Shown here piece after piece: positions 3,249 through 6,798 of a stretch of DNA of 6,798 bases; the stretch's first letter is position 1, and each line of letters starts with the position of its first letter. The DNA lies in IMG/VR virus record IMGVR_UViG_2690316243_000012; one strand, written 5' to 3'. The notes under the pieces are model-generated. The model saw nothing but the letters and a program-made list of their open reading frames with translations, searched no databases and was not told the origin of the DNA. This stretch comes from a virus. Lineage: Duplodnaviria > Heunggongvirae > Uroviricota > Caudoviricetes. Position numbers and translations under genes: made by a program.

Positions 3249-3370
3249 CAGACCTCCTCAATCGCTCTGTAACGAGCTAAACAGTCTTTTTCAGGGGTAG
3301 CCTGTACAGTGGTATTACCCACCCTAAAATAAGATAGTTTTTTGCGTTAGAATGCGATTGAGAGCGTCTG
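3249..3370 (+). repeat. Repeat element copy A: ~122-bp element with imperfect ~27-bp terminal inverted repeats
   Basis: Left arm CAGACCTCCTCAATCGCTCTGTAACGAG (3249-3276); right arm GCGTTAGAATGCGATTGAGAGCGTCTG (3344-3370), whose reverse complement CAGACGCTCTCAATCGCATTCTAACGC matches the left arm at about 19 of 25 positions. Homologous to copy B (4901-4998) and, inverted, to copy C (6286-6392). Lies between two minus-strand genes, its left end 21 nt from the ATG at 3228. Confidence 0.65.
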
Positions 3371-3406
3371 ATAAGCTGTTTTTCTAATTTCTCTTAAAGT
3401 CTCGGA

Positions 3407-3607
3407 CTACCAATAACCTAATTCCGCTTTATTTCGTTCAAACCATTCCGCTGTAACTGCTGTCTTTAGTGTTGCGTTTGGGCTGGTGGCATGAATGAAG
3501 ATATCTTTTGGATTGCAAGCATCACCGAAACCACCTTCTTTGATGAGCAGGTCTGATACATGCTTAATCATTTTATCTGTCAAATATTCGAATTTAATAC
3601 ATAACAT
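3407..3607 (-). CDS. Hypothetical small protein (66 aa from the ATG start; track ORF extends to a TTG at 3640)
   Basis: ORF-track ORF 3407..3640 begins at a TTG. The in-frame ATG at 3607-3605 overlaps the TAA stop of the upstream HNH-like gene (minus strand TAATG) and has SD GGAG 5 nt upstream, a classic translational-coupling junction. TAG stop at 3409-3407. No recognisable family. Confidence 0.45.
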   Translation of the reverse strand: MLCIKFEYLTDKMIKHVSDLLIKEGGFGDACNPKDIFIHATSPNATLKTAVTAEWFERNKAELGYW

Positions 3608-3879
3608 TAAATCTCCAGGAGTAAATTGTTTGGGTGGCAATTTCTTTTATTACCATCCCTGAAGATAATCTTTTTAGTTGCCTGAACTTCATGATGCAAA
3701 AACCAGATGACATACTTCAGATAATAATCACGAGTGCCATAACGAATCATTGGATTACCGTAAGCATCATCTCTTGTCTTAACCTCTCCACCATCAATCC
3801 ATTCAAGCATTCCTGTCTCATAATTAATCATGAAGTAAGTTGCAAAGAACCGTTTAATATCATCTCGCCATTGCTTCAT
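3607..3879 (-). CDS. HNH_3/NUMOD4-like small protein (90 aa), probably catalytically degenerate
   Basis: ORF-track ORF. ATG at 3879-3877 with SD AGGAGG 7 nt upstream. N-terminal LEWIDGGEV...YGNPMIRYG resembles the NUMOD4 motif; C-terminal YLKYVIWFLHHEV...IIFRDGNKRNCHPNNL resembles the HNH_3 motif (H.DGNK.NN...NL), but the position of the catalytic His reads F-R-D-G. Family assignment from memory. Confidence 0.5.
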   Translation of the reverse strand: MKQWRDDIKRFFATYFMINYETGMLEWIDGGEVKTRDDAYGNPMIRYGTRDYYLKYVIWFLHHEVQATKKIIFRDGNKRNCHPNNLLLEI

Positions 3880-4769: not shown

Positions 4770-4798
4770 ATATTAGCATTTTCAAAGACTAATGTCAA
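4770..4798 (-). promoter_or_regulatory. Candidate sigma70 promoter for the minus-strand operon
   Basis: On the minus strand: -35 TTGACA (rc of 4793-4798), 17-bp spacer, -10 TAATAT (rc of 4770-4775). Read directly; the -35 matches consensus perfectly. Confidence 0.5.
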
Positions 4799-4804
4799 GT
4801 ATTT

Positions 4805-4834
4805 TTAACATTTTCGTAACATCTGTGGTATAAT
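4805..4834 (+). promoter_or_regulatory. Candidate sigma70 promoter with extended -10, driving the plus-strand small-protein transcript
   Basis: -35 TTAACA (4805-4810), 18-bp spacer, extended -10 TGgTATAAT (4826-4834). Its -35 is 6 bp from the -35 of the divergent minus-strand promoter. Confidence 0.55.
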
Positions 4835-4900: not shown

Positions 4901-4998
4901 CAGACCTCTTCAATCGCCCTGTAACGAGTTAAACGACCTCTTCAGGTCAACTCATAAGGTCAGGTACTTTTTGTGTCAGAATGCGATTGAGAGCGTCT
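4901..4998 (+). repeat. Repeat element copy B: ~98-bp homologue of copy A, in the leader of the small membrane-protein gene
   Basis: Left arm CAGACCTCTTCAATCGCCCTGTAACGAG (4901-4928) matches A's left arm at 26 of 28 positions; right arm GTCAGAATGCGATTGAGAGCGTCT (4975-4998) carries the same AGAATGCGATTGAGAGCGTCT core as A. The interior shares the first ~20 bp with A (TAAAC..CT.TTCAGG), then is ~20 bp shorter. Ends 15 nt before the ATG at 5013. Confidence 0.65.
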
Positions 4999-5012
4999 TA
5001 CAAGGAAAACTA

Positions 5013-5189
5013 ATGGTAAATCTCCCTCCTGAGCTGGGGTCACCTGATGTATGGACTGGTGGAGGTATTGGGCTGATTGCAGGCCTGCTACTTCGCTACG
5101 TCCTCGTCAGAGTGCTTGTTGTCTTTAAACTGTTCGGTCGTACATGGACGCTTGACCTTAAGGATAACGACCACACAGACCCCCGTTAA
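5013..5189 (+). CDS. Small single-pass membrane protein (58 aa); candidate toxin, holin-like or exclusion peptide
   Basis: ATG at 5013 with SD AAGGA 7 nt upstream; TAA stop at 5187-5189. Translation MVNLPPELGSPDVWTGGGIGLIAGLLLRYVLVRVLVVFKLFGRTWTLDLKDNDHTDPR has one hydrophobic helix (about residues 15-41). The track ORF 4857..5189 is the same frame extended to an ATG at 4857, which has its own SD GGAGAG; that N-terminal extension is encoded entirely by repeat copy B, so I prefer the short form. Confidence 0.5.
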   Translation: MVNLPPELGSPDVWTGGGIGLIAGLLLRYVLVRVLVVFKLFGRTWTLDLKDNDHTDPR

Positions 5190-5200
5190 ACTCCTTCAAA

Positions 5201-5260
5201 ACCCCTGCACGAGATGACAGATAGAAGTCTATGGTACAGGGGTGTCTTTAGCATTTTGTG
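5201..5260 (+). terminator. Candidate terminator-like hairpin after the small membrane-protein gene
   Basis: Perfect 7-bp stem ACCCCTG (5201-5207) / CAGGGGT (5237-5243) with a 29-nt loop that has its own short inverted repeat (ATAG..CTAT), followed by the T-rich GTCTTTAGCATTTTGTG. The large loop makes this a weak call. Confidence 0.3.
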
Positions 5261-5324
5261 CTATCTATTAAAAAATAGCTTGACAGAACCGGAAAGCTGT
5301 ATCTATCAAGCATTCACCTCTCTG

Positions 5325-5501
5325 ACAGTAATTTCTAAAAGTTCTTATTTTTCAATAAGTTGTAATTAGCCATATATAGAGAACTGACAAGTCTCTTCAC
5401 AGACAACTCTGCAACCTTAACAGTAACTTCTAAAAATGCTTATTTTTCAACGAGTTGTAATCACCCAATATATAAGGCTGTCCAGTACCTTCACAGATAA
5501 C
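5325..5501. repeat. Tandem direct repeat, two ~83-bp units at a ~95-bp period
   Basis: Unit 1 (5325-5407) and unit 2 (5420-5501) share ordered blocks ACAGTAA, TTCTAAAA, TTATTTTTCAA, AGTTGTAAT, ATATATA, CTTCACAGA, AAC, with divergent sequence between them (by eye roughly 70% identical). A partial third copy (ACAGTAACTT plus AT-rich tail) is at 6457-6490. Confidence 0.7.
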
Positions 5502-6285
5502 TTCAAGCCCTCTTAACCGCCCCACTAATCGGGAGAAGAGCGATAACCCCAGAGAGGGAAGCTCCTTTCTTAACCGACCTCTTAAACGACCTTTACAGAC
5601 CTTGTTCAAGGTAATCACAATAGTTTTTCTTCCCTCGGTTTCCTGTGTTCCTCGGCTGGCTATTGAGATTTGAAAGACCTCTGTAAGCGCTCTCTTAGCG
5701 AGAGAAAAATCATTCATAGTGACCCCAAGCGAAGCGCCCCTCTAAAAAAAGATTTTTTAGCTATTTTGTTTAAAAGCATATCAAACGATACATTTTATTG
5801 ATTTAGGTCAAAGACAAAAGCATTGACAAAATGGTAAGATTGTTCACATGACCTTACTTAACAGACTTTTAAGAGACTTTGAAACAGCCTGTTTAACAGG
5901 TCACTACCTCTGGTCTTATCGTTCCCTTCTTTCTAGGTGGTTATCTGTTAAGAGTTTTTCAGTTTTTATTCTTAAGATAATTGTTAAGATGATACTCTCC
6001 CTTCGGGTTATATCGTATCTCTTCTCCCGTTAAATATCCCTTCACAGTCAGACTAAATAACACCTGTGTAGTTCTTGGTAGAATCTTTCAAGGTAACTTA
6101 GCTCTGAGTTTATGAAGTTGACCTATGAGATAGACTCTACCGAATCTGTTAGTCAATTGTTGCTTAGGTGCTGCTAAGGCTTACTTAGTGGAAAGAGAGG
6201 GGATATGTGACCATAGGGGAACCCCTCCTGTTAAAAGACTACTTAGAAGTCTGAGGTTTTAGTAAAATCTGTGAATATGGCTTCT

Positions 6286-6392
6286 CAGACGCTCTGTAAC
6301 GCATTCTAAGCGATTTTACCCCTTTATTTTAAGGTGGTTAGTACATCCCTATAGGTTACCCCTAAAAATGGGGTTAAAACTCGCTACAGAGC
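6286..6392 (-). repeat. Repeat element copy C: inverted, diverged copy of element A/B lacking the outer left arm
   Basis: Plus-strand CAGACGCTCTGTAACGCATTCTAAGCG (6286-6312) matches the reverse complement of A's right arm (CAGACGCTCT....GCATTCTAA identical apart from CAATC to GTAAC). The reverse complement of 6313-6392 aligns with A's interior and inner left arm (AGGGGTAACCTATAGGG vs AGGGGTAGCCTGTACAG; CCACCTTAAAATAAA vs CCACCCTAAAATAAG; GCTCTGTAGCGAG vs GCTCTGTAACGAG). Confidence 0.55.
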
Positions 6393-6643
6393 TTTCTATG
6401 AGATTAGCTTCTAATCGAATCAACTATGAGGTTTGGTAGGATTGTGCAAAATCTGTACAGTAACTTTTCAGAATCTGAAAATTTTTATAAAAAATGACTA
6501 GCCCTCTTTGAATCTCATCTTCCCCGAATCTTCAAAAATATCTGACAGATGTCTGTAGCTGCTAAGTACCCGTCACACCAGCTATGTGACCCCCTTGGCA
6601 AAAAAGCCAAATATCAGCTACATCCATGTAACTATTCAGTAAC

Positions 6644-6798
6644 TTATTTAGCAAGTCTGTAATAAGTTGCTCTAGAGATTCCTAACTCTTCCTGAATCTG
6701 CAACCTCGTCTTACCTTGTGAAATAAGCGTCTGTACAGCCTCTGAAGAAGCTTTTACAGGCCTCCCCATATGTACCCCTTCAGCTTTAGCACGTTCAA
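6644..6798 (-). CDS. Small serine recombinase (resolvase/invertase family), C-terminal HTH domain only; 5' part lies beyond the window
   Basis: Not in the ORF track (only 50 codons inside the window). Minus-strand translation of 6796-6647 is ERAKAEGVHMGRPVKASSEAVQTLISQGKTRLQIQEELGISRATYYRLAK, then TAA at 6646-6644. The GRP motif followed by a helix-turn-helix ending ..G.SR.T.YR.. is the characteristic C-terminus of Hin/Gin/Tn3-resolvase-type serine recombinases (from memory). Confidence 0.7.
   Translation of the reverse strand, partial: ERAKAEGVHMGRPVKASSEAVQTLISQGKTRLQIQEELGISRATYYRLAK

Follow-up and report, generated by a model that had tools for sequence, protein, structure and literature searches.

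Positions 5190-6643 of a 6,798-nucleotide stretch of viral DNA (Caudoviricetes; IMG/VR record IMGVR_UViG_2690316243_000012) are genuinely non-coding, and contain two modules, L and R, that sequence comparison identifies as homologous to, and derived from, the genome-end region of Felix O1-like (Ounavirinae) myoviruses. Throughout, "the window" denotes the whole 6,798-nucleotide stretch, "the region" denotes positions 5190-6643, and L-numbers denote homologous loci. The window belongs to an integrative island of Enterobacteria that is ~11 kb in length, and we see an even chance that the region is a cis-acting genome-end, packaging or replication region originating from Felix-like phages, with a small structured RNA embedded within it.

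Homology to the genome ends of Felix O1-like phages

The island resembles Felix O1-like phages in both its proteins and its non-coding DNA. Only two Felix-like genes are found among its otherwise orphan genes. These encode the tape measure protein, which is 32-44% identical to its best matches, in Felix O1-like myoviruses, and the protein encoded after it, which shares 66-70% identity with the Ounavirinae counterpart in the records that match best. A sensitive DNA search with the region matched unannotated Felixounavirus DNA, in the form of a gene-free stretch of ~1.5-1.7 kb between convergent genes. This stretch is packed with TTAACA / CTAACAAG / GTTAAGA repeats, spaced at roughly one per helical turn, and is conserved in 257 records from three genera (Felixounavirus, Suspvirus and Mooglevirus).

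The phage stretch coincides with the ends of the phage genome. In record PP892526, the two ends carry exactly the same 581 bp, a repeat that maps to L008 2223-2813 in the REP5 locus; the UAB_69 record annotates a 618-bp direct terminal repeat (DTR) at the same place, and several phage records with determined termini start at that repeat boundary. Published PhageTerm analyses reported DTR packaging with 581-bp repeats in a Felixounavirus (PMC8303462), and direct-terminal-repeat packaging has also been assigned to this genus by the same method (PMC11737134). The original description of Felix O1 deduced that its terminal repeats are short, and remarked on large intergenic regions to which it gave no function (PMC3185647). 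When the phage locus was compared with Rfam, only a chance-level match was returned.

A profile built from ten island loci and searched with nhmmer detects both modules in every phage locus. Module L (Table 1) aligns to sequence inside the repeat at L008 2223-2813, both with blastn (window 5893-5946 against L008 2501-2556, 87.5% identity, E 1.5e-12) and with nhmmer (5810-5919 against L008 2453-2556, E 7.8e-9); a second blastn match between the region and phage DNA had an E value of 3.3e-8. Within this module are an 11-bp TTAACAGACTT array at 5858-5899, which is a short TTAACAG array of 3.6 copies, a pyrimidine-rich CTGGTCTTATCGTTCCCTTCTTTCT tract at 5910-5934, and the block GGTCACTAYCTCTGGTCTTATCGTTCCC, which is common to islands and phages. 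Module R was aligned by nhmmer to phage sequence on both sides of the repeat's left end (6359-6589 against L008 2083-2319, E 3.5e-9; against the UAB_69 locus L016, E 6.3e-11), and a joint alignment of 11 phage loci, from three genera, with 11 island loci resolved it into four conserved blocks. The left end of the phage repeat (L008 2223) falls between CTGCTT and GGTAGCCC, the equivalent sequence being CTGCTAAGTACCCG in the window and CTGCTTGGTAC in Citrobacter-type islands.

One position in module R carries a 25-bp insertion, TAGAGTTGATTCGGTAGAATCTACC, in some sequences and not in others, and this holds for phages (L014 and L081) as well as islands (L039). This shared indel suggests there has been exchange between phages and islands, and the insertion itself may be either a tiny mobile palindrome or the trace of a phage-island exchange. 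A TAGAGTTGATTCGGTAGAATCTACC-like sequence is also present in reverse orientation at window 6128-6146. Separately, L036 and L053, which are independent metagenome contigs, both begin at about window 5860-5864, exactly at the start of the long palindrome described below, which could represent an assembly break at the inverted repeat or a real DNA end.

Absence of coding capacity

The original prediction, which was made by a model from the window's sequence, had claimed that the region lacks a convincing open reading frame (ORF), and this was borne out. Stop codons are present in 6/6 frames, with 26-41 in each, and the longest open frame, of 103 codons, is at the level expected by chance, as dinucleotide shuffles gave 79 +/- 16 codons and 7% of them reached 103. 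Hence the region is non-coding. Two weak ORFs had been listed here; none is credible, but mechanical ORF calling finds four of at least 40 amino acids (aa), rather than two. None of the four matched Pfam at its curated cut-off, and relatives disrupt these frames through indels and, in one case, the loss of a start codon.

The prediction had also raised the idea that an intact gene at this position in homologues would mark the window's copy as decayed. Some relatives do carry a Dam or HNH gene here, but solely as a cassette insertion. When the Dam and HNH proteins of these relatives were compared with the region using tblastn, only noise was returned. Given that the window contains no remnant of either gene, the region is therefore not decayed pseudogene DNA.

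A promoter-like box followed by covarying hairpins

Conservation within the region peaks in a block around an extended -10 box (Table 1). Across 34 distinct sequences, including divergent alleles of the L074/L054 type, the columns TTGAC.A..TG.TA..ATT are invariant, and the -10 hexamer varies only at its inner positions (TAAGAT, TATGAT, TAGGAT or TAATAT). The Citrobacter locus L010, which was part of the 10-locus alignment, retains the same box as TGCTAAGAT. A sigma-70 scan did not list the box, because of its weak -35. The plus-strand transcription that we infer from this conservation would start near 5847.

Downstream, the predicted transcript would fold into a long imperfect nested hairpin. 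Its outer helix pairs CTTAACAG (5857-5864) with TTGTTAAG (5981-5988), and its inner helix pairs TTTAACAG (5892-5899) with CTGTTAAG (5945-5952), such that direct copies of TTAACAG are paired with inverted CTGTTAA copies; an apical stem, CACTACCT/AGGTGGT, surrounds a 25-nt pyrimidine-rich loop. The heptamer TTAACAG/CTGTTAA is found five times in the region against an expectation of 0.38, a number reached by 0/1000 shuffles. Hairpin 1, which follows, has an outer stem with four compensatory variants (GAUAC/GUAUC, GUAAC/GUUAC, GAACC/GGUUC and AAUAC/GUAUU) and an inner stem that varies from CCC/GGG to ACC/GGU.

The structure was obtained with RNAalifold from alignments of 34 and 23 sequences, with the second returning the same architecture, and was compared with a control in which pairing partners were slid by 1-3 columns in the 34-sequence alignment. 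Paired cells made up 97.7% of the structure against 38-59% when slid, although this measure is inflated by the structure being scored on its own source alignment. Pairs changed on both sides numbered 11 against 2-4 when slid, and as the alleles fall into few clades, these double changes represent few evolutionary events. The covariation score was 0.34 against about 0.09. By hand count there are 73 G-U cells, which are mismatches on the minus strand, where pairing would drop to about 90%; counting Watson-Crick pairs alone, pairing is about 88%. The many G-U pairs hence favour a plus-strand RNA over a DNA cruciform, and the plus-strand fold is more stable than that of the minus strand. The extended -10 box and hairpins therefore point to a short plus-strand structured RNA as the most likely discrete product of the region.

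The original prediction had envisaged a large non-coding RNA, or multiple such RNAs, and had proposed that it be sought through an alignment for covariation and an Rfam scan. The alignment revealed covarying hairpins after the -10 box, consistent with a short RNA of about 140-175 nt, but no sign of one large RNA of 1.45 kb, as little covariation was found elsewhere: the blocks at 5236-5520, 5500-5760 and 6440-6645 were too conserved, or their covariation too weak, to judge. The Rfam scan of the whole window returned no match at E values up to 1. A further helix closing the structure in the RNAalifold output (5844-5856/6199-6212) was dropped, as it is nearly invariant, variation being limited to three pairs (in one or two sequences), and as it takes in the inferred start site. 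L075, which was found through a 17-mer scan of viral contigs, was rejected as a chance match in coding DNA.

These observations raise the alternative that RNA is the main function of the region, which would then encode one or more regulatory non-coding RNAs, with the likeness to phages reflecting a shared RNA gene rather than DNA-end processing. The promoter-like box, the succession of G-U-rich covarying hairpins, the greater stability of the plus-strand fold, and a pyrimidine-rich apical loop common to island and phages would all fit such a gene. Yet this explanation is improbable, given the lack of an Rfam match, the scarcity of covariation outside 5847-6020, and the lack of any recognisable intrinsic terminator downstream of the hairpins in a terminator scan. 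Nor are the outer helices kept in Felix-like phages, and the apical stem is invariant among these phages and broken in L080; hence the RNA structure finds support only within the island family. Furthermore, no conserved plus-strand structure is predicted for module R, whose match to the phages is the stronger of the two.

A discrete mobile island that avoids GATC

The island consists of a large serine recombinase gene, a gene annotated as "phage baseplate protein", the tape measure gene, island-specific small genes, a gene for a 185-aa protein, a divergent promoter, a peptide gene, about 2 kb of non-coding DNA and a small recombinase gene, in that order. It starts beside the large serine recombinase gene and ends about 480 bp past the small recombinase gene (L011 22999). 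The region had been suggested as an attachment site, but it is internal: the island runs about 1 kb further, and its ends lie elsewhere.

Relatives of the window were identified in 536 of 5426 complete E. coli genomes, as well as in E. albertii, Citrobacter and three IMG/VR contigs; 47 of the 54 recovered metagenome contigs were homologues. A megablast search of phage and plasmid collections with the window as query gave no close match. Most E. coli copies are located between tonB and yciI, and one copy is between wrbA and ymdF (island at L011 11861-23000; L019 10695-23140). The latter copy has another large serine recombinase, but its internal order is unchanged and it shares the right boundary of the others. 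Hence the island is a discrete mobile unit, rather than a random prophage stump. Two other identities were considered and rejected. Tail-fibre and baseplate genes past the L003 recombinase, which might have indicated a full prophage, belong to another prophage beyond yciI; and ten island proteins lacked a PADLOC hit, contrary to a defence island.

The tetranucleotide GATC is absent from the window, where 20.7 +/- 4.1 occurrences are expected, and from whole islands (e.g. L011 13414-23000), where about 34-36 are expected; its frequency in the host flank is normal. It is likewise absent from the Felix-like phage loci (L008 and L076). The Citrobacter island has 12 of an expected 36. Some islands still carry a Dam-type methylase gene. 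As this avoidance is maintained despite divergence of about 18-25% among island copies, it indicates continuing phage-like selection, not passive decay.

The distinction matters because the region might instead be an inert relic, left over from the terminal repeats of a Felix-like temperate ancestor of which the island is a decaying fragment; conservation would then reflect recent ancestry and vertical inheritance rather than a function today. The best blocks of the region are 84-97% identical in relatives, which is on par with the neighbouring peptide gene. Several island copies are truncated or interrupted by insertion sequences, as in a decaying remnant, most E. coli copies share one locus, only 34 of the 536 genomes keep at least 80% of the query, the modules are permuted relative to the phage, and Pfam and PHROG identified no packaging or replication genes among the window's proteins. 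However, the same architecture and right boundary recur at wrbA-ymdF alongside a different integrase, GATC avoidance stays complete in the face of such divergence, and the invariant promoter box and compensatory changes in the hairpins are kept, all of which argue for continuing selection. We therefore regard the relic explanation as unlikely.

Repeats, cassette slots and flanking genes

The remaining features of the region are a mixture of conserved and variable elements (Table 1).

Table 1. Features of the region and its borders, in window coordinates.
Feature	Position	Strand	Description
58-aa membrane-peptide ORF (MVNLPPELG...), left border	5013-5189	+	Real and conserved; stop codon directly before the region
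Terminator-like hairpin CCCCTG...CAGGGG with U-rich tail	5202-5262	+	After the peptide gene; read from the sequence
Mechanical ORFs of at least 40 aa (n=4)	5214-5369; 5430-5717; 5670-5801; 5848-6033	+; -; +; +	
Block with TTGACA and weak -10-like TATCAA	5280-5310	+	93-96% column identity, 10 loci
95-bp tandem repeat	5325-5502		Tandem Repeats Finder (TRF): 1.9 copies, 81% matches, score 240
GC-richer core	5506-5745		Variable; 12-bp TCTTAACCGACC-type repeats at 5568-5592 (TRF period 12)
Most conserved block	5780-5849	+	Extended -10 box TGGTAAGAT at 5832-5840; 88-97% column identity, 10 loci
Module L	about 5810-5926	+	Homologue of internal part of Felix O1-type direct terminal repeat
Long imperfect nested hairpin (predicted)	5857-5988	+	~130 nt; starts ten bases downstream of the inferred start
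Hairpin 1, GAUAC-UCU-CCC-UUC-GGG-UUAUAUC-GUAUC	5991-6019	+	Folds in 34/34 sequences
Hairpin 2, GAGGGG...CCCCTC then CTGTTAAAAG	6195-6237		79-85% conserved; end of conserved left half
Copy C	6243-6309	-	Partial, inverted copy of ~105-nt island-specific repeat
Variable segment with palindrome CCTATAGG	6310-6440		46-56% column identity, many gaps
Module R	about 6360-6614	+	Homologue of junction at the terminal repeat's left end
Module R block TTCAGAATCTGAAAATTTTTATAAAA	6467-6492		
Module R block TCAAAAATATCTG	6532-6544		
Module R block CTGCTAAGTACCCG	6559-6572		
Module R block CCCCTTGGCAAAAAAGCCAAATATC	6591-6615		
3' end of small serine recombinase gene, right border	6644-6798	-	Stop codon adjoins the end of the region

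The repeats listed in the original prediction were confirmed. The 95-bp tandem repeat was recovered by TRF, and its number varies between relatives, with a single copy in L001. The GC-richer core is real but modest, with a G+C content of 0.437 at 5401-5700 against about 0.37-0.39 in neighbouring intervals; it is the least conserved part of the region's left half (57-75%), and the copy number of its 12-bp TCTTAACCGACC repeats differs in L009 and L019. The motif CTTAACCG is indeed repeated, at 5512 and 5569. For TAAACGACCT, one copy is within the region (5583) and the other outside it (4930), and the palindrome CCTATAGG exists at 6348-6355, one base away from the predicted 6347-6354.

Copy C was also found as described, inverted with respect to the full copies of the same ~105-127-nt repeat at 3249-3375 and 4901-5004, which have imperfect terminal inverted repeats (AGACCTCTTCAATCGC / GCGATTGAGAGCGTCT). 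Copy B (4901-5004), which forms part of the 5' leader of the peptide gene, is a clean insertion or deletion in L001, and copy C is absent from several relatives. This repeat is present at only 1-3 places per genome across 214 E. coli genomes, with copies being within the island in the loci examined, and the idea of a genome-wide miniature inverted-repeat transposable element was therefore rejected.

Part of this variation takes the form of gene replacement, and two cassette slots can be recognised in or beside the region (L082 13837-14406, L083 14619-15284, L001 about 1300-2700 and L012 20797-21465). In the first, a Dam-type methylase gene on the minus strand displaces the GC-richer core and the second 95-bp repeat in some islands, such as L012. 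The second, in the right part of the region or beyond it, holds a small serine recombinase, an HNH endonuclease or a 221-aa ORF. The stretch 6240-6440 is variable, with an HNH ORF taking its place in L001 and other sequence in some relatives. The small recombinase is itself a variable cassette: it is absent in L001, L002 and L083, and its position elsewhere holds an unrelated plus-strand recombinase (L082), the 221-aa ORF or the HNH gene. Hence the small serine recombinases of this slot are of two unrelated types, in either orientation.

Such variability bears on whether the region is part of an invertible segment under the control of the adjacent recombinase, in which a switch for the peptide gene would lie between two oppositely oriented copies of the ~105-nt repeat (4978-5004 and 6281-6307). 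The inverted repeats do bracket this gene and most of the region, and a Hin/Gin-type recombinase gene adjoins it. Nevertheless, the recombinase is missing from three loci and replaced by an unrelated, oppositely-oriented gene in L082, L001 lacks copy B and several relatives lack copy C, and no relative in the inverted orientation was found among about 57 loci, making this explanation exceedingly improbable.

A replication origin, of either the island or its phage ancestor, is very unlikely. The repeats would then be initiator sites, next to an AT-rich unwinding element and a promoter-primed start, for which candidates can be found in the tandem and short phased repeats, the AT-rich conserved sequence with its promoter at 5750-5850, the GCGAAGC motif at 5729, and two nonamers resembling DnaA boxes, exact at 6443 and with one mismatch at 5840. 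However, the neighbourhood lacks an initiator gene, relatives carry either one or two of the 95-bp repeats, and a Dam gene can take the place of the core; relatives also do not keep the DnaA-like boxes, and GC skew shows no switch specific to the region. No primase, helicase or initiator domain was found by Pfam or PHROGs in the window's proteins, by PADLOC in these and two L011 proteins, or by PGAP in whole islands.

The GCGAAGC heptamer (5729-5735) is part of an invariant block, CAAGCGAAGCG, that immediately precedes the AT-rich promoter block. This motif is an unusually stable DNA mini-hairpin, and the loop of hairpin 1 reads as CGAAG on the minus strand. L019 has two copies of the unit that lies between hairpins 1 and 2. 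At the left of the region, the stem of the terminator-like hairpin is conserved in relatives, with the window having a 17-bp insertion in the loop; a simple terminator scan did not pick it up. The block at 5280-5310 is a possible promoter, with hexamers read by eye, and was not listed by the promoter scan.

The region is bordered on the left by the peptide gene, which is kept in nine relatives (tblastn, 57-97% identity), and is preceded by an AAGGA ribosome-binding site, read from the sequence, at 5003-5007. Its homologue is labelled by PGAP as a 62-aa hypothetical protein, and the peptide itself matched no family. The gene, encoding a hydrophobic product of 58-62 aa, has a near-consensus promoter (TTAACA-18-TATAAT, with TG upstream) at 4805-4834. 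The size and position of the peptide suggest a small toxin, a holin-like protein or an exclusion protein. The recombinase gene on the right, of which the window has the C-terminal helix-turn-helix, matches Pfam HTH_7 (E 6.9e-7) and a PHROG annotated as DNA invertase, and the fragment shares 94-100% identity with the 182-aa recombinases of L011 and L012. The window is AT-rich, phage-type DNA of about 38% G+C, whose minus strand carries the 5' part of the tape-measure gene (13-1290) and a series of small genes reaching as far as 4718; divergent promoter-like sites are present at about 4770-4834. One of the minus-strand genes, at 3607-3879, is a 90-aa HNH_3-like ORF (Pfam E 7.5e-5, below the curated cut-off) that overlaps the next ORF; it is named HNH endonuclease in the E. 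coli island annotation, and is short for a homing endonuclease. A tRNA and tmRNA scan found none.

Discussion

If the region is a genome-end, packaging or replication region of phage origin, it would represent a compressed, permuted relative of the ~1.7-kb gene-free region of the phages. Module R, chiefly its part at about 6440-6614, would retain the sequence context of a helper-type left genome end, and module L, with the palindrome at 5857-5988, would retain the internal repeat element. Together, these modules may admit the terminase of a Felix-like phage, and possibly its replication machinery, to the DNA of the island, in the manner of satellites at helper pac or cos sites. The extended -10 promoter at 5832-5840 would generate a short plus-strand RNA, composed of the long nested hairpin and a second hairpin, that might act as a primer, regulator or packaging cofactor. 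The 95-bp repeats, the GC-richer core and 6240-6440 would then be variable filler, or space for the insertion of cassettes.

A packaging site is the best supported of the options offered by the original prediction, in that two modules are homologous to the phage region and one spans the left end of its repeat. Several points nevertheless weigh against this interpretation. Firstly, module order is permuted: R precedes L in the phages, whereas L precedes R in the window, about 430 bp apart. Hence the cutting geometry of the phage is not simply transferable. Secondly, overall identity between the modules and the phages is only 49-66%, and is concentrated in short blocks. Thirdly, for the gene-free region of the phages it is only the position of the DNA ends that is established. 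Fourthly, no capsid, terminase or replication gene was recognised in the island, and its 185-aa and 236-aa proteins have no phage homologue, and no clue from Pfam, PHROG or PADLOC. Finally, the minimum-energy fold of the window's own sequence does give the hairpin at 5857-5988 (-40.2 kcal/mol), but with a modest z of -1.74, and to this must be added the stem broken in L080, and the truncated and interrupted island copies.

A bolder interpretation is that the island represents a new family of satellites of virulent Felix O1-like phages, distributed across E. coli, E. albertii and Citrobacter. The region would then be a hijacking device, which combines a rearranged terminal-repeat junction with a promoter-driven RNA partly shared with the helper; the RNA could prime replication, contribute to end processing or sense the helper. 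This is possible, but doubtful. The satellite lifestyle, like any role in packaging or replication, is something we infer. The literature searched contained nothing on the island or its proteins, on the function or transcriptome of the phage region, or on a satellite of Felixounavirus.

As classic typing phages, those of the Felix O1-like group are frequent in phage collections and in therapy and biocontrol work. The presence of the island in about a tenth of complete E. coli genomes, each retaining selected pieces of the phage region, is in effect a natural deletion analysis, in which the blocks that matter would be the left-end junction, the TTAACAG palindrome with its pyrimidine-rich loop, and the extended -10 box. 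Were the phage to mobilise the island, the two would constitute a new satellite-helper pair involving a virulent coliphage, the outcomes of phage therapy and the extent of gene transfer could be affected, and there would be a tractable system for studying the cutting and duplication of direct terminal repeats. Were the island not mobilised, the avoidance of GATC and the covarying hairpins would still call for explanation.

Comparison with known systems

Structured RNAs and hairpins at genome ends have precedents in other phages. The packaging RNA (pRNA) of phi29 is encoded near the end of its genome, and is a pure analogy for a structured RNA in this position, as here there is no match to pRNA in Rfam and the phages are myoviruses of the terminase-based type. 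In the T7 concatemer junction, short repeat arrays lie on either side of the terminal repeat, and it has been suggested that an inverted repeat near the junction folds into a hairpin when the ends are processed. The ~130-bp imperfect palindrome in the module homologous to the terminal repeat may be analogous to this, although there is no sequence similarity, and the G-U pairs favour an RNA over a DNA hairpin in the island.

The closest comparison is with the terminal-repeat region of the Ounavirinae themselves. Both are gene-free stretches between convergent genes, which in the island are the peptide gene on the plus strand and the recombinase gene on the minus strand; both have densely packed short repeats of the TTAACA / GTTAAG type with 11-12-bp spacing, found by TRF as 11-bp and 12-bp arrays in the island; and both contain the two homologous modules, corresponding to the left-end junction and the pyrimidine-rich hairpin block, together with complete GATC avoidance and the 25-bp indel polymorphism. 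They differ in their module order, and the arrays of the island are shorter (3.6 copies against >20 in the phage). The 95-bp repeats, the 105-nt repeat and the cassette genes are features of the island and not of the phage region. Moreover, the island is integrated and 11 kb in length, whereas the Felix-like phages are virulent, with 86-kb genomes, and it is for these phages alone that DNA ends are known.

Phage satellites with packaging signals derived from their helpers include P4, with its cos site, the phage-inducible chromosomal islands (PICI), with pac or cos sites, and the PICI-like elements (PLE) of Vibrio cholerae. Unlike these, the island has no recognised genes for replication, capsid remodelling or regulation, its integrase is a large serine recombinase, and the phage that may be its helper is virulent and has direct terminal repeats. 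What it has in common with them is being a small integrative island, of about 11 kb and with its own integrase, that carries both non-coding DNA homologous to the genome-end region of one phage lineage, and a few structural genes of that same lineage.

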